A DNA stretch of 64,000 bases from an uncultured Planctomycetia bacterium. GTDB taxonomy: Bacteria > Omnitrophota > Gorgyraeia > Duberdicusellales > 4484-171. The stretch is from positions 64,608 through 128,607 of the forward strand of contig CAZHYN010000002.1 in assembly GCA_964536865.1 (NCBI GenBank), in the 5' to 3' direction. A program made the translations under genes and the position numbers. Numbering within the stretch: position 1 is the stretch's first letter; each line of letters opens with the position of its first letter. Below, in pieces: positions 21,159 to 54,450 of this stretch. The notes beneath the pieces are model-generated. The model made no database searches. It worked only from the letters and a program-made list of their open reading frames with translations, and was not told where the DNA came from.

Positions 21159-21740
21159 TTATAAGCCTAATTCTTCACTAATACCTTTCATTGCTTCTAA
21201 ACAAATGCTGATAAATTCACTAAGGGTAATTCCCAATTCTTGAGAACTCCTTATCTGTTCTCTGTTTGCCCCTCGGGCAAAACTCTTCTCTTTAAACCTA
21301 TTAAGAACAAATTTAACATCTAAAGCTCTAAGAGACTTTTCTGGATGCATTAAAGCAGAAGCTACAATCAATCCTGTTAAAGGGTCAACAGCATATAATG
21401 CCTTGGCCATCTTCGTTTTCCTTTCAATATGCCCGGGATGAGATTTTATTGCCTCAATCACCTCTTCATTAATACCTCGCTCTTTCAGAATCTCAGCAGT
21501 AACAAACCCATGTTGAGAAAAATCATCTTTTGTCTCCTCGTAATCTAAATCATGCAAAAGGCCAGCCAGGCCCCATAAATCCTGATCTTCTCCAAATTCT
21601 TTAGCTAATCTCCTCATACAAGCCTCAACAGCTAAACTATGTTTAATTAAATTCTTATTCTTTAGCCTTTCTTCTAACAACTTTAAGGCTTCTTTTCTGA
21701 ACATCTTTACTGCTCCAGAATCTGCACAATATCTACCCAC
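21159..21740 (-). CDS. HD-domain phosphohydrolase
   Basis: HSLAV...LLHDLDY HD motif. The track start is GTG; an internal ATG (MFRKEAL) may be the real start. Confidence 0.75.
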   Translation of the reverse strand: MGRYCADSGAVKMFRKEALKLLEERLKNKNLIKHSLAVEACMRRLAKEFGEDQDLWGLAGLLHDLDYEETKDDFSQHGFVTAEILKERGINEEVIEAIKSHPGHIERKTKMAKALYAVDPLTGLIVASALMHPEKSLRALDVKFVLNRFKEKSFARGANREQIRSSQELGITLSEFISICLEAMKGISEELGL

Positions 21741-22006
21741 GCCATCCCTCTTGAGCCATTTTCATAAATCTTACACGTTCCTCTTTATCCATCTCTTCTA
21801 CCTTCACTTCAACTCTTACATCTTCATCCTCTTTTTTCAAAGCTTCTTCAATGCTGGTTATTAAGTAATCTTTAAAATGAAACCTTGCTTTCTTCTATAT
21901 TTATATCTTTAATCATTCCTAACTCAAAAAGGCTATAGGCAATCTCAGGATGCTCAACACTTTTTAAAGCCTCCTCCATCCTAATTCTTTTACTTCTCTC
22001 AACCAT
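21733..22006 (-). pseudogene. Frameshifted, degenerate DUF59 (MIP18/SufT-like Fe-S assembly) remnant
   Basis: ATG 22006 with SD GGGAGGG gives MVERSKRIRMEEALKSVEHPEIAYSLFELGMIKDINIEESKVSF then a stop. A frame shifted at the TTTT run (~21874-21884) continues KDYLITSIEEALKKEDEDVRVEVKVEEMDKEERVRFMKMAQEGWRG*. The central CP/Cys motif is absent. Confidence 0.4.
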
Positions 22007-22159
22007 AAACCCTCCCCTATTTAAATTTCTCCCTCCAAAATCTTTGTAATTATTAATATCCTGGTAGGAAGGGAAAGAGCTTTAAAGAAATCAGTAACTT
22101 TCCTCAAATCCAATCTTTCTATCTATCCCCTCCTGATTGGTTTATGATATTTGAATATT

Positions 22160-22187
22160 CTTATATCATAAGAAAAAAATATGTCAA
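22160..22187 (-). promoter_or_regulatory. Sigma70-type promoter (-35 TTGACA, 16-bp spacer, extended -10 TGaTATAAG) driving the DUF59-remnant / HD / UDG gene string
   Basis: Read directly on the minus strand. -35 at 22182-22187, -10 at 22160-22165. Confidence 0.45.
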
Positions 22188-22188
22188 T

Positions 22189-22434
22189 AAATTTACGGCT
22201 GGAGTTTCCCCATTTTTCCAGCTATCTGGCAAAGATTTAAAAATATTTAAATTTTTTACCTCAAAAAGTTCTTGAAAATATTGGCTTTTCAAAATTTTGG
22301 GGAAACAGTTTCCCCATTTTTTAAGAATAAAAATTTAGCGGAAGGGTCCAGATTTTAATTTTTTTAACTCCTTATATTATAATAAGTTACATAATTTTAT
22401 AGATAAATTATGGGGAAACTCCAAATTTACGGCT
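22189..22434. repeat. Structured repeat region. A 12-bp direct repeat AAATTTACGGCT (22189-22200 and 22423-22434) flanks inverted 13-bp repeats GGAGTTTCCCCAT (22201-22213 / 22410-22422). A perfect palindrome GGGGAAAC-AG-GTTTCCCC sits in the centre (22299-22315).
   Basis: Exact matches in the sequence. The proximal copy sits 11 bp upstream of the -35. Confidence 0.6.
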
Positions 22435-22624
22435 TGTGGATGCAAACATCCTATAATCACAACTTTACCTCTATCTATATCAGAGTTGTTGTAGCTTCCA
22501 ATTTCTCATCTTCTATTTTGTCGAGCTTCTATTCAAAAGAACGCTTACTTCTTTTCGAATAAGTTCAAATACTCTTTCTTCTAAATCTCGTAGAATACCC
22601 CCACAACAGATAAAAATCAAAAGT

Positions 22625-24882: not shown

Positions 24883-25446
24883 TTATTTCCCTCCTTTTCT
24901 AAAATTTAATATCTGGCACTCATTGTAATAATCATTATGTAAACATCTTTTAACTAACTTTTTCTCAAAAATAAACCCTATCTCCTCAACTTCTTTTATA
25001 ATATCTTCCAGACTCAGAGAAGCCAGTTCCCTCAGAGGAAAGTCGTCTTTATAATGCTTGGGATAAACAGAAAAAAGTCCATCTTTTTTTAATACCCTGT
25101 AAACTTCTTTATAAATTTTCTCTCTATTTTTTTCATAATGAATAACATCGTAACATAAAACTGCATCTAAAAAGTCATCCCCCAGAGGAATTTTCGTCTC
25201 TGTTTGAATTATCTCTATATTTTCCAACTTTTCTTCAGTGAGTATCTGTCTCAACTTATTCAATACTCCTCTATCCTTATCCAAAGCATAAACTCTACCA
25301 TTCTTTCCTACAACTTTTGCCGCTGGAATTGTATAATGACCCTCTCCACAACCAAAGTCCAACACAATTTGTCCCTTCTTTAAACCAATACTCCTCAAAA
25401 ATCTTCCTCCATCTTCATTTATCCACTTCCTTACATCCCCATCCAT
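24883..25446 (-). CDS. Class I SAM-dependent methyltransferase
   Basis: VLDFGCGEGHYT motif I. Confidence 0.7.
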   Translation of the reverse strand: MDGDVRKWINEDGGRFLRSIGLKKGQIVLDFGCGEGHYTIPAAKVVGKNGRVYALDKDRGVLNKLRQILTEEKLENIEIIQTETKIPLGDDFLDAVLCYDVIHYEKNREKIYKEVYRVLKKDGLFSVYPKHYKDDFPLRELASLSLEDIIKEVEEIGFIFEKKLVKRCLHNDYYNECQILNFRKGGK

Positions 25447-25560
25447 TATCCTTCTATAGTTTAATCACTTATAAGTAATCCTTCTCATTACCCTATTCTC
25501 TCCTTCTAATCATTAAAACAACACTTTCTAAACTAACTCCTAAGAGAAAAACCTTAAATT

Positions 25561-26073
25561 CTAAAATTCAAGAGACTTTAATCTCTCTACATCTTTAAGT
25601 ATTCTCCTGTGGGAAGAAAAAGGTATGTAAGGAATTTCTTTCTTTCTAAAAAATCTTGCCTCTTTTAATTCATTATTTACGAAAATCCTATCCTTAGAAA
25701 CCCTTACCAAATAAGCTATTGCCAGAATAGTCCCGTATTTCTTAGTCTTCTGAATATAAACTCCTATTAGATTAGCAATTTCTCCTTCTATCTTAGTTTC
25801 TTCTCTTAACTCCCTTAAACAAGCCTCTCGAGGGTCTTCTTCCCACTCAACAAAACCTCCGGGAAGTGCCCATTTATTCTTTCCAGGCTCCACATTCCTC
25901 TTAGCTAAAAGAATTTTTCCTTCCTTGTCAATCGCTACACCCACTGCTACCGGTAGAGGATTTTTGTAATGTATCCACCCACACCTAAAGCAAATTTGCC
26001 GAAGACAGCCGTCTATCTTTCGCCATCTTAAAGAGTGACTACAAAAAGGACAAAATTTAAAGTTGGTGTTCAT
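25561..26073 (-). CDS. Nudix hydrolase with N-terminal zinc ribbon (NudC-like architecture)
   Basis: CPFCSH...CFRCG ribbon; Nudix box GGFVEWEEDPREACLRELREETKIE. Confidence 0.75.
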   Translation of the reverse strand: MNTNFKFCPFCSHSLRWRKIDGCLRQICFRCGWIHYKNPLPVAVGVAIDKEGKILLAKRNVEPGKNKWALPGGFVEWEEDPREACLRELREETKIEGEIANLIGVYIQKTKKYGTILAIAYLVRVSKDRIFVNNELKEARFFRKKEIPYIPFSSHRRILKDVERLKSLEF

Positions 26074-26336
26074 CTCTTACACACTCCATCATCCGAGCAA
26101 GGCGGCCTATCGCAACGCTCACTTCTTCCACAACAGGTTCTTCCAGGAGAATTACTATTTTTATAATCAGTAGCGTAGAAGCCTGAGCCTTTAAAAATGA
26201 AACCTGCCCCTCCTTCAATAAGACGCCTAACTTTCTGACCACACCGGGGACAAACTTTTACCGGCTCCTCACTCATACTTTGAAATTTCTCAAACCTATA
26301 ACCGCACTCTTCACATAAATACTCATAAGTAGGCAT
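26070..26336 (-). CDS. FmdB-family zinc-ribbon protein with Cys-rich C-terminal extension
   Basis: MPTYEYLCEECGYRF...CPRCG. Confidence 0.55.
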   Translation of the reverse strand: MPTYEYLCEECGYRFEKFQSMSEEPVKVCPRCGQKVRRLIEGGAGFIFKGSGFYATDYKNSNSPGRTCCGRSERCDRPPCSDDGVCKR

Positions 26337-26346
26337 TCTATCCTCC

Positions 26347-27168
26347 TTATCTTTCTAAGTATGCTATTATCTTCTCTATTATTTCATCTGTAACTTTAGA
26401 AGCAGCTAAATCTTTATTAAAATATACAAATGGTTTGCCTGAATCAGAAAGCTTAACAATTTCAGGCTCAACCGGTATTCTCCCTAAGAAAGGAACATTC
26501 AACTTTCTCGCTGAAGCTTCTGCCCCTCCCCTACCAAACAAATCTATCTCTTTTCCACAATAAGGACAAATGAAACCACTCATATTCTCTATTATCCCAA
26601 TTACAGGAACGTTTAACTCTTTAGCAAACAATACGCTCTTGCGGGAATCTAAAGTAGCTACATCCTGAGGAGTAGTAACAACTACTGCTCCATTCAGGTT
26701 TGGTATAAGCTGACACACGCTTAAAGGTTCGTCTCCCGTACCTGGAGGAGAATCTATTACTAAATAATCAAGTCTTCCCCAATTTACATCAGATAAGAAT
26801 TGCTTAATTACGCCCATCTTAAGAGGGCCCCTCCATATAACAGGCTTCTCCTGGTCTTTGCCGACAAAAGCAAGGCTAATTGCCTTAAGATTAGGAAGCA
26901 CTTTTATAGGCTCAATACCCTTATCTGAACCTGTAACCCTTGCTCCCTCTACTCCCAGCATTTTAGCAATATTAGGGCCATGAATATCCACATCTAATAT
27001 ACCAATTTGCTTACCCCTAAGAGCTAAACTGTAGGCTAAATTTACAGCTATGGTAGTCTTTCCTACTCCACCTTTCCCACTTATAACAATAATCTTATAG
27101 TTTATGCCGCACATTTTCTCCTTAAGACGTTCGTCTTGGGCTATCTTCTCTTCATTTATATTCTGCAT
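26347..27168 (-). CDS. Mrp/NBP35 (ApbC) family Fe-S cluster carrier ATPase
   Basis: GKGGVGKTT P-loop; CPYCG cluster-bridging motif. Confidence 0.85.
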   Translation of the reverse strand: MQNINEEKIAQDERLKEKMCGINYKIIVISGKGGVGKTTIAVNLAYSLALRGKQIGILDVDIHGPNIAKMLGVEGARVTGSDKGIEPIKVLPNLKAISLAFVGKDQEKPVIWRGPLKMGVIKQFLSDVNWGRLDYLVIDSPPGTGDEPLSVCQLIPNLNGAVVVTTPQDVATLDSRKSVLFAKELNVPVIGIIENMSGFICPYCGKEIDLFGRGGAEASARKLNVPFLGRIPVEPEIVKLSDSGKPFVYFNKDLAASKVTDEIIEKIIAYLER

Positions 27169-27192
27169 TACTTCCCTCCTGAAAACAGAAAG

Positions 27193-28053
27193 TTATGTAA
27201 TCTCTTCCTCTAATCTATACCAGATTTTAGTAACCTCTCTCTTAGCTTCTGTATCCTGGTATTCTATAATTGTTTTTCCTTCTACCATAGCCTTTACTAC
27301 AGACTCGTCAAATTTTATTTTGCCAATTATTGGAATATTATTAATCTGGCAGTAATTTTCTATTCTTTCAGTAACTTCAGTATTTAAATTAAATTTATTT
27401 ATTATCAGTTTAACAGAAACTCCAAAATGCTTAGCTACCTTAATAACTCTATCTGCATCATGCAAGCCTGATAAAGTAGGCTCAACCACCACTATTGCAT
27501 AATCTAAGCCTGATAAAGAAGCAATTACCGGACATCCTATCCCTGGTGAACCATCTATAATTATCAAACTACAATTTTCTTTCTCGGCTATTTGCTTTGC
27601 CTTTTCCCTGACCAAGCTAACGAGTTTGCCTGAGTTTTCTTCAGCTACTCCCAATCTGGCATGGATTAATTTACCAAATCTTGTATTAGATATAAACCAC
27701 TCTCCACAAATCTTTTCCTCCATTCTAATAGCCCCAGCAGGACAAACGTAGCTACAAAAACAGCAACCTTCACAGGAAATAGGGTCAACCACAAAATCCT
27801 CAGTTATAGCAGAAAAACGGCATACAGAGAGGCATTTTCCACAGCGTTGGCAAAACTTCTTATCAATCTCTGCGACTTTACCACTTTTAAACTTATGTCT
27901 TTCTATAATTTCAGGTTTAAGCAAAAGATGTAAATCTGCTGCGTCTACATCACAATCAGCAAAAACAGCATCCTTAGCCAAAGAAGCAAAACCAGCAGTA
28001 ATCACAGTCTTACCTGTCCCGCCTTTTCCACTAATAATTCCAATCTGCTTCAT
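27193..28053 (-). CDS. MinD/ParA-superfamily ATPase with inserted 2x[4Fe-4S] ferredoxin domain (COG1149 type)
   Basis: GKGGTGKT P-loop; CQRCGKCLSVC and CEGCCFCSYVCP clusters. Confidence 0.8.
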   Translation of the reverse strand: MKQIGIISGKGGTGKTVITAGFASLAKDAVFADCDVDAADLHLLLKPEIIERHKFKSGKVAEIDKKFCQRCGKCLSVCRFSAITEDFVVDPISCEGCCFCSYVCPAGAIRMEEKICGEWFISNTRFGKLIHARLGVAEENSGKLVSLVREKAKQIAEKENCSLIIIDGSPGIGCPVIASLSGLDYAIVVVEPTLSGLHDADRVIKVAKHFGVSVKLIINKFNLNTEVTERIENYCQINNIPIIGKIKFDESVVKAMVEGKTIIEYQDTEAKREVTKIWYRLEEEIT

Positions 28054-28886
28054 TTTACCAATTCTTTAATCTTATAATAGAGAATTTTAAACTTTTCTCT
28101 ATATTCAGGAAATCCTTCTATAAGAGGGATGCCTTTTGAATAAGCAACTGCTATTTCTTTTTTAAAAGGAATCTGCATAAGAATAGGGAGCTTCTTTTGT
28201 CTACAAAACTCATCTACTTTGTTATCACCCAATTCAGACCGATTAATAATTACACCAAAAGGAATCTTAAGTTTTCTCAACATCTCCACCGCTAAAGCCA
28301 AATCATTAAGGCCAAAAGGGGTAGGCTCAGTAACTAAGATACAAAAATCACTCCCCTTTACTGCTTCAATAACAGGGCAGGAAGTACCGGGAGGAACATC
28401 AATAATAACATTTTTACCAGAATTTATATGGGCTTTGACCTGGCTAATAAGGGGAGGAGAAATCGCTTCACCAATATTAAGCCTTCCTCCCACAAATTCT
28501 AAATCGTTTTTTCTACCTATTTCAATAACACCTATTTCCCTCTCAACCTCTTTAATAGCTCCTTGAGGACAAAAGAAGCTGCAAGCTCCACAACTATGGC
28601 AAAGTTCTTTAAAGACTAAAACATCCTTATTCTTTATTACCGCAATAGCTTTATAAGCACAGACTTCTGCACACTTTCCGCAGAAATTGCACTTCTCCTT
28701 ATCTATCTGAGGAACCAGGACAAAAGCTTTTACTTTCTCTGTTATCTGAGGCTTTATAAATATATGAGAGTTAGGCTCCTCTACATCACAATCTAAAAGC
28801 TGGGCAGAAGGTAGAGAAAGAGCTAAATTTACAGCAATAGTAGTCTTTCCTGTTCCACCTTTACCTGAAGCAACTGAAATAACCAT
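28050..28886 (-). CDS. MinD/ParA-superfamily ATPase with inserted 2x[4Fe-4S] ferredoxin domain (COG1149 type); paralog of the gene at 27193-28053
   Basis: GKGGTGKTT; CNFCGKCAEVC and CHSCGACSFFCP. Confidence 0.8.
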   Translation of the reverse strand: MVISVASGKGGTGKTTIAVNLALSLPSAQLLDCDVEEPNSHIFIKPQITEKVKAFVLVPQIDKEKCNFCGKCAEVCAYKAIAVIKNKDVLVFKELCHSCGACSFFCPQGAIKEVEREIGVIEIGRKNDLEFVGGRLNIGEAISPPLISQVKAHINSGKNVIIDVPPGTSCPVIEAVKGSDFCILVTEPTPFGLNDLALAVEMLRKLKIPFGVIINRSELGDNKVDEFCRQKKLPILMQIPFKKEIAVAYSKGIPLIEGFPEYREKFKILYYKIKELVK

Positions 28887-28985
28887 AGTTTATATAATTT
28901 GATGATAAGCCATCATTATCTGCTAAAACTTATAAGATATCCCCAAAGAGGTGGGTCTTCTGGAGGATAAAACCTCTTCTATCTA

Positions 28986-29198
28986 TTACCCACGAACCAT
29001 CCTGGTTCCACACTTAGGACAATTCAAGCTATAACAAGGAACACCTACCTGATGAGGCACTCTCATCCCACAACTAGGACAAACACAATTTCCTCCTGGA
29101 CCTGCACCGGGACGATTTCCACCCATTCTACCTCTACCTCTACCACCACCGCTGCCTCTACCTCCTCCAATTGGGCCTCTTCCATCTCCAAAAGGCAT
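28986..29198 (-). CDS. Small Gly/Arg-rich protein with C-terminal CxxC..CxxC zinc ribbon
   Basis: GGGRGSGGGRGRGRMGG low-complexity N-terminus; CPSCG...CPKCG. Confidence 0.5.
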   Translation of the reverse strand: MPFGDGRGPIGGGRGSGGGRGRGRMGGNRPGAGPGGNCVCPSCGMRVPHQVGVPCYSLNCPKCGTRMVRG

Positions 29199-29212
29199 CT
29201 TTTACCTCCTTT

Positions 29213-29530
29213 TTAGGCTCTACGAGAATCATTGGAAAGTTTATCTATTCGAGCTAAAACAGAAAAAAGGGTTTCTCTTAACTTCCCAAGTTCATCTTTA
29301 ATTTCTTTTACTTCTCTATCTTTATTTGCTTTTTCAGAAGAAACCATCCTTATTGCCTGAAATGGACAAAATCTTGTGCATACTCCGCAACCTACACATT
29401 TATCCTCATCAATCCAGGGCCTCCCTCTCACCACTCTTATAGCACCTTGGGGACAACTCGAAATACACTGAAGACAACCCCTGCATATACTTAAATTAAC
29501 TACAGCTTTTTTAGATTCTCTAATGCTCAC
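29213..29530 (-). CDS. 2x[4Fe-4S] ferredoxin-like protein with coiled-coil C-terminal tail
   Basis: CRGCLQCISSCP and CVGCGVCTRFCP, then EVKEIKDELGKLRETL heptads. Confidence 0.7.
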   Translation of the reverse strand: MSIRESKKAVVNLSICRGCLQCISSCPQGAIRVVRGRPWIDEDKCVGCGVCTRFCPFQAIRMVSSEKANKDREVKEIKDELGKLRETLFSVLARIDKLSNDSRRA

Positions 29531-29846
29531 ACTTATCTGCGCTTTCTTTAAGAACCCCTTTTATAAAATCGTCTATTACCTTATTGATTTCTCCCTCAGC
29601 AAAAATAACCTGGATATTTTTTTCTCTGAATAACTCCTGAGCTCTTGGACCCATACCTCCGCAGATTATCACATTTACCTCCATCTTTGAAAGATATTCA
29701 GGCAAAAAACCTGGAGTATGACCAGGATTAGAAATAGTCTTTCTTTGCTTTACGCTTTGGCCCTCAGCATCAACAATCTCATACTCAAGACATCTTCCAA
29801 AATGAGAACTTACTAAATCTCCCTCTTTAGCTATGGCTATCCTCAT
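29520..29846 (-). CDS. NifX/NifB-like dinitrogenase FeMo-cofactor-binding family protein (COG1433, MTH1175-like)
   Basis: MRIAIAKEGDLVSSHFGRC...IICGGMGPRAQELF. Confidence 0.75.
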   Translation of the reverse strand: MRIAIAKEGDLVSSHFGRCLEYEIVDAEGQSVKQRKTISNPGHTPGFLPEYLSKMEVNVIICGGMGPRAQELFREKNIQVIFAEGEINKVIDDFIKGVLKESADKCEH

Positions 29847-30472
29847 TCTTCTGCTCCTTTCTCTAATTCCTGAATTCTTTTGTTTATTAGGCTCATCTGT
29901 TGTTTTAAAAAATCTAACTGCTGTTTTAAAAATTGAAGCTCCTGCTCTTTAGAAACTTGAGGTTGATTAACCTGAGGATAAAATCCTGGTTGAAAAAACC
30001 TTCCTCTTCCCATACCCATACCTCTTCCCATCCCAAAGCCAGGCATAAACCCTGGAGTTGAATAAGGTATATTTTGTTGAGGATTATTAGCTAATGCAGA
30101 AGGTCCCATCATTCCAAAGTGGCCGAGAACATTAGGGTTAGGAGTGGGGTTGAGCTGGTTTTTTTTAAATTTATCTATGGCCTCTCTTACAGTTAAACCA
30201 GCTAAACCGGTAATAACCTGTATACCTGAAGCCTGAAATACTCCAAAAGAATTAGGTCCCACATTACCAGTCAATACTGCATTTACCCCTTTATTGGCTA
30301 TAAACTGGGCACTGGATATTCCTGCTCCTGAAGGAGAACTAATATTAGGATTAGAGAGACTTTCAAAACTATCCTTTTCTGTATCATAAATTATAAAATA
30401 AGCACATCTTCCAAAACGAGGATCAACCAGAGAATCTAAATTTCCCCCCTGAGAAGTCACACATATCTTCAT
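29843..30472 (-). CDS. NifX-like (Nitro_FeMo-Co) domain fused to a Gly/Met/aromatic low-complexity linker and a C-terminal coiled coil
   Basis: MKICVTSQGGNLDSLVDPRFGRCAYFII, then GFMPGFGMGRGMGMGRGRFFQPGFYP, then KEQELQFLKQQLDFLKQQMSLINKRIQELEK. Confidence 0.7.
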   Translation of the reverse strand: MKICVTSQGGNLDSLVDPRFGRCAYFIIYDTEKDSFESLSNPNISSPSGAGISSAQFIANKGVNAVLTGNVGPNSFGVFQASGIQVITGLAGLTVREAIDKFKKNQLNPTPNPNVLGHFGMMGPSALANNPQQNIPYSTPGFMPGFGMGRGMGMGRGRFFQPGFYPQVNQPQVSKEQELQFLKQQLDFLKQQMSLINKRIQELEKGAEE

Positions 30473-30538
30473 AAAACACCCCTCCTTCTAAAAATTGGAA
30501 ATCCTAAATTCCAATAATTTGGAACAAAGTTATTAAAA

Positions 30539-30859
30539 TTAAGATTCTAACTCCTGGACTCTTTTCTCAATCTGCTCAAGTTGGGCCTTCAACGCCTCTG
30601 CTTGCTGTTTTAATAGCTGTAACTCCTGTTCTTTAGTAAGTTGAGATACTCCGTAAGGGTCAAAAGGCAAAAATTGGCCTCTTTGAGCCTGGGGCATATT
30701 CTGCCAAGCCCAATTCGCCTGCCAGGTAGGCCAACTCCCGGTCATTAGATACTGAGCCCCTGGAGGCAAAGTCCCCCAACCCGGAGAAAAACCAAACCTC
30801 ATCCAGCCAGGTAAACCGGTAAGATAATACATATACCTGTTGCCTCTTCCTCCAACCAT
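30539..30859 (-). CDS. Small Trp/Gly/Pro-rich protein with C-terminal coiled coil (DUF5320-like architecture, tentative)
   Basis: GWMRFGFSPGWGTLPPGAQYLMTGSWPTWQANWAWQNMPQ, then KEQELQLLKQQAEALKAQLEQIEKRVQELES. Confidence 0.5.
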   Translation of the reverse strand: MVGGRGNRYMYYLTGLPGWMRFGFSPGWGTLPPGAQYLMTGSWPTWQANWAWQNMPQAQRGQFLPFDPYGVSQLTKEQELQLLKQQAEALKAQLEQIEKRVQELES

Positions 30860-30919
30860 ACTAACACCTCCCTCTCTTAGTTTGCAGCTCAGAATCAGTA
30901 GCCTTGATTTATAAATTAA

Positions 30920-31147
30920 TTATTGGCCTCTCTCTAATTCCTGAATTCGGGCATCTATATCCTTAAGTTGAGCTTCTAAGTTTTGTCTTAATTGCCTCAA
31001 ATAACTTAATTCATCCTGCCCAAAAAAGAAAGGAGAAACCCCCCCGAGATAAGGTAATCCATATCCGTAAGAAGCAGGCCAATAAGGATAAAAATAAGGC
31101 ATCATAAACCAACCTGCTGGACCCATCCCAAAAGGCATAACCATCAC
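30920..31147 (-). CDS. Small Met/Tyr/Phe/Gly-rich protein with C-terminal coiled coil (paralogous tail)
   Basis: MMVMPFGMGPAGWFMMPYFYPYWPASYGYGLPY, then LRQLRQNLEAQLKDIDARIQELERGQ. Confidence 0.5.
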   Translation of the reverse strand: MMVMPFGMGPAGWFMMPYFYPYWPASYGYGLPYLGGVSPFFFGQDELSYLRQLRQNLEAQLKDIDARIQELERGQ

Positions 31148-31176
31148 CCCCCTTTTAAAAATTAAAAGCTGAAAAA

Positions 31177-31410
31177 TTACCTCGTCTGCCCCAAAGATTG
31201 ATTACTTCCGTAACCAAAAGGTGTATAACTAAAAGGATTTATTGGCCCATATATACCTGTCCACCACCATCTGGGAAGCCAGGGAAACCACCTGCAGAAA
31301 GGATAAGGATTGCCTCTTCCCCAGCCAAAGTAAGGAAAGTAAGGATAGCCGTAGCCAAAATAACCCCACTTCCAAAAACCAGGACCCCAAAAATTTCTTC
31401 CTCTAGGCAT
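31177..31410 (-). CDS. Small extremely aromatic/Gly-rich protein (W/Y/F/G/P ~60%), no coiled coil
   Basis: FWGPGFWKWGYFGYGYPYFPYFGWGRGNPYPFCRWFPWLPRWWW. Strong SD GGAGGTGA 7 nt before the ATG. Confidence 0.4.
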   Translation of the reverse strand: MPRGRNFWGPGFWKWGYFGYGYPYFPYFGWGRGNPYPFCRWFPWLPRWWWTGIYGPINPFSYTPFGYGSNQSLGQTR

Positions 31411-31444
31411 TTTTAATCACCTCCTCTTTTAAATATCATTACCA

Positions 31445-31461
31445 TTGAAAATCATTTTCAA
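31445..31461. promoter_or_regulatory. Predicted Fur-family operator: perfect 7-1-7 palindrome TTGAAAATCATTTTCAA, 35 bp upstream of the aromatic-rich ORF
   Basis: Perfect inverted repeat, identical (bar the centre base) to the box at 31945-31961. Confidence 0.55.
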
Positions 31462-31479
31462 CAATATATTAAAAAAAAA

Positions 31480-31929
31480 TTAGCTACAATTTGAACATAA
31501 ACCGTAAAAATGAATTTGATGAGTCTCTATTTTAAAATTATGTTTTTTAGATAATCTTTCTTCTAAACCCTTTATTAATTTTTGTTCATCCTCTACAAAA
31601 TCTTTATAATCAATTATCTTCCCACACTTTCTGCAAATTAAATGGTGATGATGTTCTATACCTGGTCCCTGGCTTAATTCAAATCTGGCCCTTCCGTCTC
31701 CAAACTCATATTTCCTTACCAGGCCCATATTAAAAAGAAGTTCTAAAGTTCTGTAAACTGTAGTAAGCCCTATCCCCGGATACCGCTTATGAACTTTCAG
31801 GAAAATATCCTCAGCACTAAGGTGCTTTTTTTCTTTAGTCAAAACATCCAAGATAACCTGCCTGGGAAAAGTCCACCTAAAACCACAACCTCTAAATCTT
31901 GCTTCTAACCATCTCGGGCCAAAAGGCAT
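31480..31929 (-). CDS. Fur-family metalloregulator (Fur/Zur/PerR)
   Basis: Winged-helix ...GLTTVYRTLELL...; HHHHLICRKCG and C-terminal CSNC metal sites. Confidence 0.85.
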   Translation of the reverse strand: MPFGPRWLEARFRGCGFRWTFPRQVILDVLTKEKKHLSAEDIFLKVHKRYPGIGLTTVYRTLELLFNMGLVRKYEFGDGRARFELSQGPGIEHHHHLICRKCGKIIDYKDFVEDEQKLIKGLEERLSKKHNFKIETHQIHFYGLCSNCS

Positions 31930-31944
31930 AAAACTCCTTCCTTA

Positions 31945-31961
31945 TTGAAAATGATTTTCAA
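31945..31961. promoter_or_regulatory. Predicted autoregulatory Fur-family operator: TTGAAAATGATTTTCAA (plus-strand sequence), overlapping the predicted +1 region of the regulator's own promoter
   Basis: Perfect palindrome between the -10 and the RBS AAGGAAGGAG. Confidence 0.6.
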
Positions 31962-31971
31962 TTTCAATAAA

Positions 31972-32000
31972 ATAATACCATAATAAGCTTCTCCTGTCAA
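31972..32000 (-). promoter_or_regulatory. Sigma70-type promoter of the Fur-family gene (-35 TTGACA at 32000-31995, 17-bp spacer, extended -10 TGgTATTAT)
   Basis: Read on the minus strand. Confidence 0.45.
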
Positions 32001-32011
32001 GAGTAAAAGAC

Positions 32012-32024
32012 CTGGAGTTTCCCC
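32012..32024 (-). promoter_or_regulatory. GGGGAAACTCCAG motif 11 bp upstream of the -35, identical in sequence and spacing to the copy at 22199-22211
   Basis: Exact 13-mer shared, with the same 11-bp gap to TTGACA in both promoters. Confidence 0.5.
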
Positions 32025-32236
32025 AAAATTTTTAAGCCAGTAAAGAGAAGAGGAAGAGCTGTTTTTCGGTACTTTGCAATTTTCTTTCCTTCCACGGCCA
32101 CTCCATCTTATATTAAATAGAATTCTAAATATCCCCAAGGCTAAGCAATAGTGTTTGAAGGGTGATATCTGAAAGAATCTTTTTGCCTTTTCATAAATCT
32201 TCTTAAGAAGAATATTTAATCCCAAATTTTTCATTA

Positions 32237-32297
32237 CCTGCCTGACGGCAGGCCTGCCCGCTGATGTTTACCCCGCCCTTTCCTTGAAAGGGCGGGG
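32237..32297. repeat. GC-rich tandem hairpins (CCTGCC-TGAC-GGCAGG and CCCCGCCCTTTC-ctt-GAAAGGGCGGGG) downstream of the LPS gene block; copy A of a repeat family
   Basis: Strong stems in an AT-rich background; homologous to the element at 46944-47022. Confidence 0.55.
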
Positions 32298-32305
32298 TTC
32301 GGGGG

Positions 32306-46901: not shown

Positions 46902-46943
46902 TTTCTCAAAATTTATACTACAAATGGCGATTTGTCAACTCTT

Positions 46944-47022
46944 AAGTAAAACCCGAACCACGGGCTTACCCTCGCCCTTTCAAGGAAAGGGCGAGGTGGC
47001 TTTCTGTGGTTCGGGGTAAATA
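46944..47022. repeat. GC-rich nested palindrome: outer stem CCCGAACCAC/GTGGTTCGGG around inner CCTCGCCCTTTC-aag-GAAAGGGCGAGG; copy B of the family also seen at 32237-32297
   Basis: Shares the CGCCCTTTC...GAAAGGGCG core and TTTACCCCG / GTTCGGG flanks with copy A. Confidence 0.6.
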
Positions 47023-47091
47023 CTTCAATATATATTTTACTTGAAGAGAGAGTAAAGAGATGATAAGATTGAGAAGAAAGGGAGGAGGATT

Positions 47092-54373: not shown

Positions 54374-54450
54374 TATCCACCTCCTTAGAAAATAGTAGTA
54401 TAAAATTAATTATTTTATACGTCAATAGAAAAATCATTTTTAACTATAAA

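Follow-up and report, generated by a model that had tools for sequence, protein, structure and literature searches.

The 64,000-nucleotide stretch of uncultured Omnitrophota DNA analysed here (the window) encodes on its minus strand a Fur-family repressor of 149 amino acids (aa), preceded by a sigma-70 promoter and a palindromic operator and followed by a gene cluster with a second copy of the same operator in front of it. Directly upstream of the fur promoter lies the 13-mer GGGGAAACTCCAG, which recurs at the same distance from the promoter of a decayed arsR-type gene elsewhere in the window. A preliminary description of this DNA had ascribed the shared spacing to a second transcription factor acting on both promoters. 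Instead, the 13-mer forms the extremity of a terminal inverted repeat (CTGGAGTTTCCCCA...) belonging to an unnamed insertion sequence (IS) of the IS4/Tn5 type, which appears to home to promoters. Taken together, we consider it very likely that a conventional Fur module and, unrelated to it, the tip of this apparently promoter-homing element account for the locus. The coordinates of all features are collected in Table 1.

Table 1. Features of the fur and arsR-type loci, in window positions.
Feature	Position	Strand	Remarks
Fur-family repressor gene, 149 aa	31480..31929	minus	Pfam PF01475 FUR match
fur promoter	31972..32000	minus	-35 TTGACA 32000-31995; 17-nt spacer; extended -10 TGgTATTAT 31980-31972 (TATTAT 31977-31972)
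Fur box 1 (predicted), TTGAAAATCATTTTCAA	31945..31961		perfect palindrome after the -10 and before the ribosome-binding site
Fur box 2 (predicted), second perfect TTGAAAATCATTTTCAA copy	31445..31461		34 nt ahead of ATG 31410 of the next open reading frame
77-aa open reading frame heading the DUF5320/NifX-like/ferredoxin/P-loop NTPase cluster	31177-31410	minus	preceded by Fur box 2
GGGGAAACTCCAG, 13-mer, outermost 13 nt of the remnant	32024-32012	minus	11 nt upstream of the fur -35
Gap between element end and -35, 11 nt	32001..32011	minus	8-nt probable duplication copy 32004-32011, then 3 nt 32001-32003
Remnant, 3' end of an IS4/Tn5-type insertion sequence	32012..32228 (end approximate)	minus	last ~65 transposase codons and right terminal inverted repeat
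Miniature non-coding element, 226 bp	22199..22424		same IS family; 14-nt perfect inverted repeat inside direct repeats
Terminal inverted repeats of the 226-bp element	22199-22213; 22410-22424		CTGGAGTTTCCCCAT; ATGGGGAAACTCCAA
Target-site duplication ATTTACGG, 8 bp	22191..22198 (left); 22425-22432 (right)		3 nt (22188-22190) before the -35
arsR-type promoter	22160..22187	minus	TTGACA 22187-22182; 16-nt spacer; TGaTATAAG (TATAAG 22165-22160)
Decayed genes	21733..22113	minus	ArsR N-terminal stub, 30 aa, 22021-22113; DUF59-like fragments 21872-22006 and 21733-21840

The fur promoter named in the preliminary description was found in place; its 17-nt spacer ends in TGg, and it scores 11/12 in a promoter scan, with the TG of the extended -10 present. 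On the minus strand, the -10 is followed by 10 nt, the palindromic 17-mer TTGAAAATCATTTTCAA (31961-31945), a ribosome-binding site (RBS), GGAAGGAG, and the ATG at 31929. If transcription is assumed to start 7 nt past the -10, the palindrome would span approximately +5 to +21, in the repressor position that had been proposed for it. Read with the TGAAAT upstream of it, the palindrome forms the 19-mer GAAATTGAAAATCATTTTC, which matches the classical Fur box at 15/19 positions. The operator copy reported before the next gene is also present and overlaps a weak promoter-like site found by the scan (TTGAAA-18-GATATT, 31461-31432). Two exact copies of the 17-mer in the window compare with 0.00 expected from 100 shuffles, more than chance would give.

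The promoter and its box are kept among relatives. The two nearest loci, L002 (92% nucleotide identity) and L008 (97% over the promoter), conserve the -35, the extended -10 and the 17-mer, while L003-L007 have a TTGACA-16/17-TATxxT promoter followed by a T-TGAAAAY-N-ATTWTCA-ATAA palindrome and an RBS. A palindrome of the same type occupies the box-1 position of the orthologous fur loci throughout L002-L008, with the same placement directly past the -10 in metagenome-assembled genomes of Omnitrophota, Atribacterota and Spirochaetota; the distant loci carrying it are labelled as these three phyla, plus one unnamed bacterium. A second box just past fur recurs in L002 (position 711), L003 (6482) and L007 (1373). 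These comparisons support a real-looking, conserved, near-consensus sigma-70 promoter and a predicted Fur-box variant, TGAAAAT-N-ATTTTCA. Autorepression of fur and co-repression of the downstream cluster are well supported as predictions: fur would be transcribed from a strong sigma-70 promoter, a metal-loaded Fur dimer would most likely bind box 1 just past the -10 and over the start site, shutting off fur, and the identical box 2, overlapping a weak internal promoter, would extend repression to the cluster.

Assignment of the protein to the Fur family, as previously suggested, is borne out by a Pfam FUR match with an E value of 2.2e-35 (122 bits versus a gathering cutoff of 23.1) that covers residues 16-142. 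Among NCBIfam models, the Bacillus-type Fur ranks first (131 bits), ahead of E. coli Fur (96 bits), PerR (65-90 bits) and Zur (37 bits), with every score below the respective equivalog cutoff (131 versus 220 bits for the best Fur model). The translation, read by eye, shows HHHH, HHHHLICRKCGK and CSNC, including two CxxC motifs, and is predicted to contain a His-rich regulatory site and a paired CxxC structural zinc site. In Bacillus subtilis, the half-sites are TGATAAT for Fur, TTATAAT for PerR and TCGTAAT for Zur, from which the predicted half-site TGAAAAT differs at one, two and three positions, respectively. That the regulator is a paralogue such as PerR, with the palindrome as its box and the cluster responding to peroxide or another metal and not to iron, is in our view unlikely; the sub-cutoff equivalog scores and the PerR values of 65-90 bits are compatible with it, as are the two CxxC motifs, which are common to Bacillus-type Fur, PerR and Zur, but the top scores belong to Fur models, the half-site lies nearest that of Fur, and the genes that would be regulated are of Fe-S and iron-transfer types.

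Similar to the Fur systems of E. coli and B. subtilis (19-bp box GATAATGATAATCATTATC or 7-1-7 box TGATAATNATTATCA), the module in the window combines a FUR domain with a palindromic, A/T-rich 7-1-7 operator over its own start region and a second box ahead of iron-related genes, and the agreement amounts to 12/14 positions of the 7-1-7 core and 15/19 of the 19-mer. It differs in the half-site, which is TGAAAAT and not TGATAAT, a variant common to orthologues from several uncultured phyla, and in the cluster predicted to be controlled (DUF5320, NifX-like, ferredoxin and P-loop NTPases), which is no classical uptake regulon. Overall, an ordinary iron-regulatory annotation of a conventional Fur module is supported by these comparisons, and the variant TGAAAAT-N-ATTTTCA should be usable for Omnitrophota and neighbouring uncultured phyla. 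Weaker matches resembling a Fur box, located at 54428 and 62226 next to chemotaxis and deacetylase genes, were not accepted. The first of these regions contains AAAAATGATTTTT (54415-54445), which immediately precedes a TTGACG-17-TATACT promoter situated between cheA and a small open reading frame (ORF) ahead of cheR; it resembles half a Fur box and was likewise not accepted as one.

The cluster past fur encodes DUF5320-like proteins, two NifX-like proteins, a ferredoxin and MinD/NUBPL-type P-loop NTPases, a composition that would suit an iron or Fe-S regulon. Its first three small ORFs (77, 75 and 106 aa, 30539-31410) have an extraordinary content of W, F, Y, G and P, and two of them end in a coiled-coil-like tail; DUF5320 is matched weakly and below threshold in the 106-aa ORF only. 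Presumably, these three ORFs head the cluster under Fur control.

Turning to the 13-mer, its placement 11 nt from TTGACA in two promoters, both with an extended -10, was confirmed, and the spacing is a genuine non-random signal. The second copy occupies 22211-22199 on the minus strand, from which 11 nt lead to the arsR-type TTGACA, the spacer of that promoter ending in TGa. A third copy, which the preliminary description did not mention, lies at 22412-22424 on the plus strand, inverted relative to that at 22199-22211. With up to one mismatch, the 13-mer occurs three times in the window versus 0.11 expected from shuffles, and the 8-mer GGGGAAAC occurs six times versus 1.7 expected, five of the six in the two largest intergenic regions. 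Metagenome contigs scanned for AAWWWTGGGGAAACTCCAR yielded at least 119 stretches, whereas a control scan of viral contigs returned 12 matches from 4 distinct sequences, all of them chance and coding-like. Among the metagenome matches listed, the inner side of the motif groups into families, each with many different outer flanks, and one family consists of a unit of 134 bp whose ends are inverted repeats. Searching the literature for the motif returned unrelated eukaryotic and CRISPR papers only, and Rfam (gathering threshold) and tRNA/tmRNA scans of the whole window found nothing, so that the repeats correspond to no known RNA.

A complete parent element of 1462 bp is present in L096 (887-2348), bounded by perfect 14-bp inverted repeats, CTGGAGTTTCCCCA, and containing a single ORF of 426 aa with its stop just inside the right end. 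A full transposase is also carried by L030, and transposase homologues adjoin the motif in more than 15 loci. The 426-aa protein has more than 2800 homologues, mostly unnamed or hypothetical and typically on contigs of ~1.5 kb, some of which carry PF01609 (DDE_Tnp_1); for this domain, the L030 homologue scores 42.1 bits versus a cutoff of 23, and the L096 copy a sub-threshold 15.5 bits. An alignment of ten members (A1) revealed invariant D103, D190, D194, Y310, R313, E318 and K324, and the protein has a Y-(2)-R-(3)-E-(6)-K signature (YLTRWKVEESIRFLK in L030; Y-R-(D/E)-K in the form given by A1). A profile of ten homologues matched the Tn5 transposase structure 1mus_A at positions 180-349 (E=1e-6); the L030 transposase as a single sequence found no match among solved structures, so a profile was required. 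Curated NCBIfam transposase models (IS4, IS701 and IS1634) score 17-40 bits against cutoffs of 100-250, placing the protein outside their membership; ISKra4 and IS256 models were not among its NCBIfam matches, and the Mutator profile PF00872 gave no match up to E=5 for either the L096 or the L030 transposase.

The family shares with the IS4 family, and specifically with its IS50 (Tn5) and IS10 subgroups, the DDE_Tnp_1 domain, the YREK-type signature, profile similarity to the Tn5 transposase, inverted repeats that start 5'-CTG, duplications of ~9 bp, and a single transposase ORF of ~430 aa in an element of 1.4-1.5 kb. It differs from the IS4 family in its very distant sequence, with the NCBIfam IS4 and IS701 models far under their cutoffs. 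IS10 recognizes a symmetric consensus inside its duplication, whereas the target here appears to be set by position relative to a -35 hexamer. On this comparison, the family is best classed as a distant, unnamed branch of the IS4/Tn5 superfamily with miniature derivatives. Target duplications of 8-11 bp were found at eight sites (L126, L088, L147, L048, L050, L154/L152, L160 and the window), and the anatomy, mobility and positional bias of the element are evident from these sequence comparisons. In L043 (75-120), a contig of 59% G+C, 8 nt separate two element ends that point toward each other (...GGGGAAACTCCAGttattttcCTGGAGTTTCCCC...), indicating neighbouring insertions and widely differing base composition among the hosts of the family.

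At the fur locus, the interval from 32012 to ~32228 (~205-210 nt) is 77-87% identical to the right ends of the elements in L030, L042, L066, L117 and L141, and the flanks differ. Within it, residues 3-40 of a spurious ORF (31905-32234) align to transposase residues 361-398 with 39% identity (E=2e-7). A partner inverted repeat upstream of this copy was searched for in the window and none was found, nor was a transposase gene of this family found within the 64 kb; with its left end missing, the copy is a one-ended remnant. The junction between element and promoter was confirmed by the independent assembly L001, which is 100% identical over 25265-32298. Alignments (blastn) of L002 and L008 to the window stop at 32011 and 32010, at the edge of the 13-mer, which starts at 32012; upstream of this junction, neither locus is related to the window or to the other. 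The 13-mer is absent from both orthologous fur promoters though the -35, the -10 and the Fur box are kept. By analogy with complete copies, the 8 nt at 32004-32011 are a probable copy of the target duplication.

The arsR-type locus provides the more complete case. The perfect 14-nt inverted pair 22200-22213/22410-22423 delimits, with the conserved CT...AG tips, an element of 226 bp (22199-22424) that is enclosed by the 12-nt direct repeat AAATTTACGGCT, which includes 2 nt of each inverted repeat. The same unit is present in L048 with 96% identity over 226 nt, at a different site and with its own 9-bp duplication, TGAGGAATA. Short, non-coding, equipped with the ends of the parent IS and with a duplication, and found elsewhere as a unit, the interval has the sequence hallmarks of a miniature inverted-repeat element. 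An invertible promoter switch between the 14-nt repeats at 22200 and 22410 was considered and dropped, as the 226 bp recur elsewhere with their own duplication and contain no convincing internal promoter. Like bacterial miniature inverted-repeat transposable elements, the miniature copies of this family (104-277 bp) are non-coding, have the inverted repeats of the parent IS and target duplications, and occur in many copies with differing flanks. They differ in their strict promoter-proximal placement, and the window copy differs further by an internal end-like palindrome that gives it the look of two fused units, yet it moves as one (226 bp in L048). This perfect palindrome, TGGGGAAACAGTTTCCCCA (that is, TGGGGAAAC-A-GTTTCCCCA, 9-1-9; 22298-22316), had not been mentioned before; it looks as though two inner ends had fused and, followed by ATTTTTT, has the look of an intrinsic terminator on the plus strand.

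The gene behind the arsR-type promoter has decayed. Its status as a stub follows from three-frame translation and from comparison with the intact arsR in L014; in L014-L017, the orthologous promoter heads an intact 97-aa HTH_5 (ArsR-type) gene, and the 13-mer is absent from all of these promoters. The DUF59 label of the neighbouring fragments (21872-22006 and 21733-21840) comes from reading the sequence alone. A 15-nt inverted repeat (TTATGATATTTGAAT/ATTCTTATATCATAA, 22142-22171), within the stretch that aligns with L014, overlaps the -10 and is probably an ArsR-type operator left behind despite the truncation of the gene. The miniature element lies in an intergenic gap of 920 bp (21705-22624) next to an HD-domain gene whose true extent is 21159-21704, its close homologues all being 181 aa and the mechanical 193-aa ORF (21159-21740) an overcall. 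Where the window has the segment 21705-23116, which comprises a ferredoxin gene, the miniature element and the stubs of arsR and DUF59, L012 and L013 (92% identical) have one Lactamase_B gene, located between yggS and the HD-domain gene; the locus is variable and decaying. This different gene made L012/L013 uninformative when they were examined for an empty site of the element.

The evidence for promoter homing lies in the spacing. In the 122 unique motif matches, among those listed, over which positional counts were taken, exact TTGACA starts 11, 12 and 13 nt past the element end in 9, 9 and 5 cases, respectively, and every other offset from 0 to 44 holds 0-1. TTGACA within one mismatch was found at offsets 11-14 in 28 of 65 validated element ends, compared to 5 of 52 matches without other signs of an element; since only one end of an element can abut its target, this proportion means that most elements appear promoter-adjacent. 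A -10 within one mismatch of TATAAT followed at 16-18 nt in 14 of the 33 flanks that have a TTGACA-like hexamer at offsets 10-14, versus 37 of 381 exact TTGACA hexamers elsewhere in the same loci, indicating that the hexamers beside element ends are mostly real promoters. Copies with intact duplications all show one layout (inverted repeat, 8-9-bp duplication, 11 bp once, 3 nt, -35), which is also followed by copies chosen through the protein and not the motif; these lie ahead of yceD-rpmF-plsX, yebC and rplU-rpmA. In both window promoters, the 11 nt equal 8 + 3. The family therefore appears, from its sequence context, to home to promoters, and the identical 11-bp spacing is best explained by the element's target choice and not by a shared regulator.

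We propose that insertion would occur at a fixed place, through a staggered cut of 8-9 bp whose promoter-side edge lies 3 nt upstream of the -35 hexamer, leaving the element end 11-13 nt from TTGACA. The fur promoter would have received such an insertion, of which only the element's 3' end survives, and the decayed arsR-type promoter (22160-22187) the 226-bp miniature copy; equal spacing in the two would then stem from the target choice of the transposase and not from co-regulation. Recognition of the -35 could depend on its sequence or on touching RNA polymerase or sigma bound there.

Promoter-homing transposition was termed atypical for prokaryotic elements when it was described for TnGBS/ISLre2 and for the ISKra4 group (PMC3942029, Guerillot et al. 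2014). In that study, these DDE transposons of the Mutator superfamily land 15-17 bp ahead of the -35 boxes of sigma-A promoters and generate duplications of 8-9 bp; members of the ISKra4 group, whose inverted repeats are near-perfect, have promoters at either end, and the polymerase initiation complex was proposed as the point of contact. In a later large survey of insertion sequences, ISLre2 and ISKra4 were the only ones singled out for their distance to neighbouring genes (PMC9208149). No example of an IS4-type promoter-homing element was found in a literature search of incomplete coverage. The likeness between those elements and the family described here is one of behaviour only, namely, the fixed distance upstream of the -35, the 8-9-bp duplications and, as a likely benefit, a harmless landing site, together with, for ISKra4, near-perfect inverted repeats and promoters found at either end. 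In contrast, the transposase here is of the IS4/Tn5 type (DDE_Tnp_1) and not Mutator, the element end lies 11-13 nt from the -35 instead of 15-17, miniature derivatives are abundant, and the hosts are uncultured sediment and groundwater lineages. An unrelated, abundant and largely unannotated IS4-type family with this habit would represent convergence and would offer a second, independent system for studying the way in which a transposase finds a -35; in genomes without mapped start sites, the ends of the element would act as natural promoter markers. A bolder version, in which the family locates promoters through contact with sigma region 4 or the alpha C-terminal domain at the -35, arose independently of the Mutator-type elements, and leaves at -48 to -60 a transposase-bound repeat that modulates the host promoter and is no passive scar, is speculative and distinctly improbable; if true, genes such as fur would be wired to mobile-element activity across many uncultured phyla.

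Several points weigh against the reading of the 13-mer as the tip of a promoter-homing element. Only one element end is left at the fur locus, and no duplication pair is there to prove insertion. L002 and L008 lose homology to the window at the same nucleotide without having this element, a coincidence for which this reading does not account; at the junction, L002 has instead a truncated piece of a transposase of the Mutator family (positions 37-69 of the PF00872 profile, E=5e-4). In the 134-bp family, clear duplications are missing and both flanks often carry an outward TTGAC, which might result from recombination between copies or from assembly chimeras, and the target-site evidence comes entirely from metagenome contigs, which are prone to chimeras across repeats. 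In addition, the inverted repeat at -48 to -60 may also influence the adjacent promoter. The Mutator fragment of L002 (1-160) reads toward the fur promoter and is cut exactly where the window's element begins; its superfamily has known promoter-homing members, but the fragment itself does not represent an intact element end.

A related possibility is that the insertion is real but its end has since been exapted, with the inverted repeat at -48 to -60 now acting in cis, either by binding transposase or a host factor or, as a hairpin with a T-run, by insulating the promoter from read-through. The repeat takes the place of the native UP-element region in both promoters, TTTGGGGAAACTCCAGG followed by TCTTTTACTC is flagged as terminator-like by a scan, and the fur-locus remnant retains exactly the inverted-repeat end, the rest having decayed. 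We nevertheless consider exaptation quite improbable: the family's transposase is missing from the window, the promoter-near end would also be kept if deletions reaching the promoter were lethal or costly, and the hairpin comprises just 7 pairs, G-T pairs included, around a 3-nt loop. A terminator or hairpin role of the 13-mer was rejected on this last ground, a stem of this kind being too weak to explain the data.

Alternatively, insertion could be random, and the 11-13-nt spacing could reflect later selection for copies that lie just upstream of an intact promoter. Insertions within genes or promoters would be purged, and an intergenic survival bias is common among miniature elements. However, any position further upstream should be tolerable, whereas the histogram is a 3-nt spike; and copies that are probably young, because their duplications are still intact, already follow the order of duplication, 3 nt and -35, among them transposase copies of identical protein sequence at different sites. 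A 3-nt spike even at copies with intact duplications argues for targeted integration, and we regard later selection as very unlikely to account for it.

Hardly credible by comparison, and already largely refuted, is the earlier proposal that the 13-mer is the site of an unidentified host factor, a class I type activator binding around -54 and co-regulating the fur and arsR-type promoters: it draws on the same sequence at the same 11-bp spacing in two window promoters, on the imperfect palindrome TGGgG-AAA-CtCCA and on the perfect 9-1-9 palindrome of the same half-site inside the miniature element, but the motif is missing from the orthologous promoters of the closest relatives (L002 and L008; L014-L017), which themselves are kept, it invariably forms the end of something larger, either a family-specific repeat with inverted-repeat ends and target duplications or a transposase gene, its neighbours elsewhere (rplU, yceD-rpmF-plsX, yebC) are functionally unrelated, and the arsR gene supposedly served is a 30-aa stub. 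Absence from conserved orthologous promoters and position at the tip of a mobile element mean that an activator site is not supported. For motif discovery, this serves as a warning that the ends of promoter-homing elements mimic shared activator sites.

A second repeat family is found next to the IS remnant. Between the remnant and the stop of a heptosyltransferase gene (32240-32300) lies a G+C-rich hairpin, CCCCGCCCTTTC-loop-GAAAGGGCGGGG, followed by TTCGGGG, and a near copy, CCTCGCCCTTTC...GAAAGGGCGAGG, is present at 46950-47018, within a longer stem in the gap 46902-47091. These are G+C-rich hairpins in an A+T-rich genome, with a 12-mer that occurs 5 times versus 0.13 expected, and an 86-nt stretch folds at -43.7 kcal/mol (z=-5.4). 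The family could be a REP-like element or a terminator.

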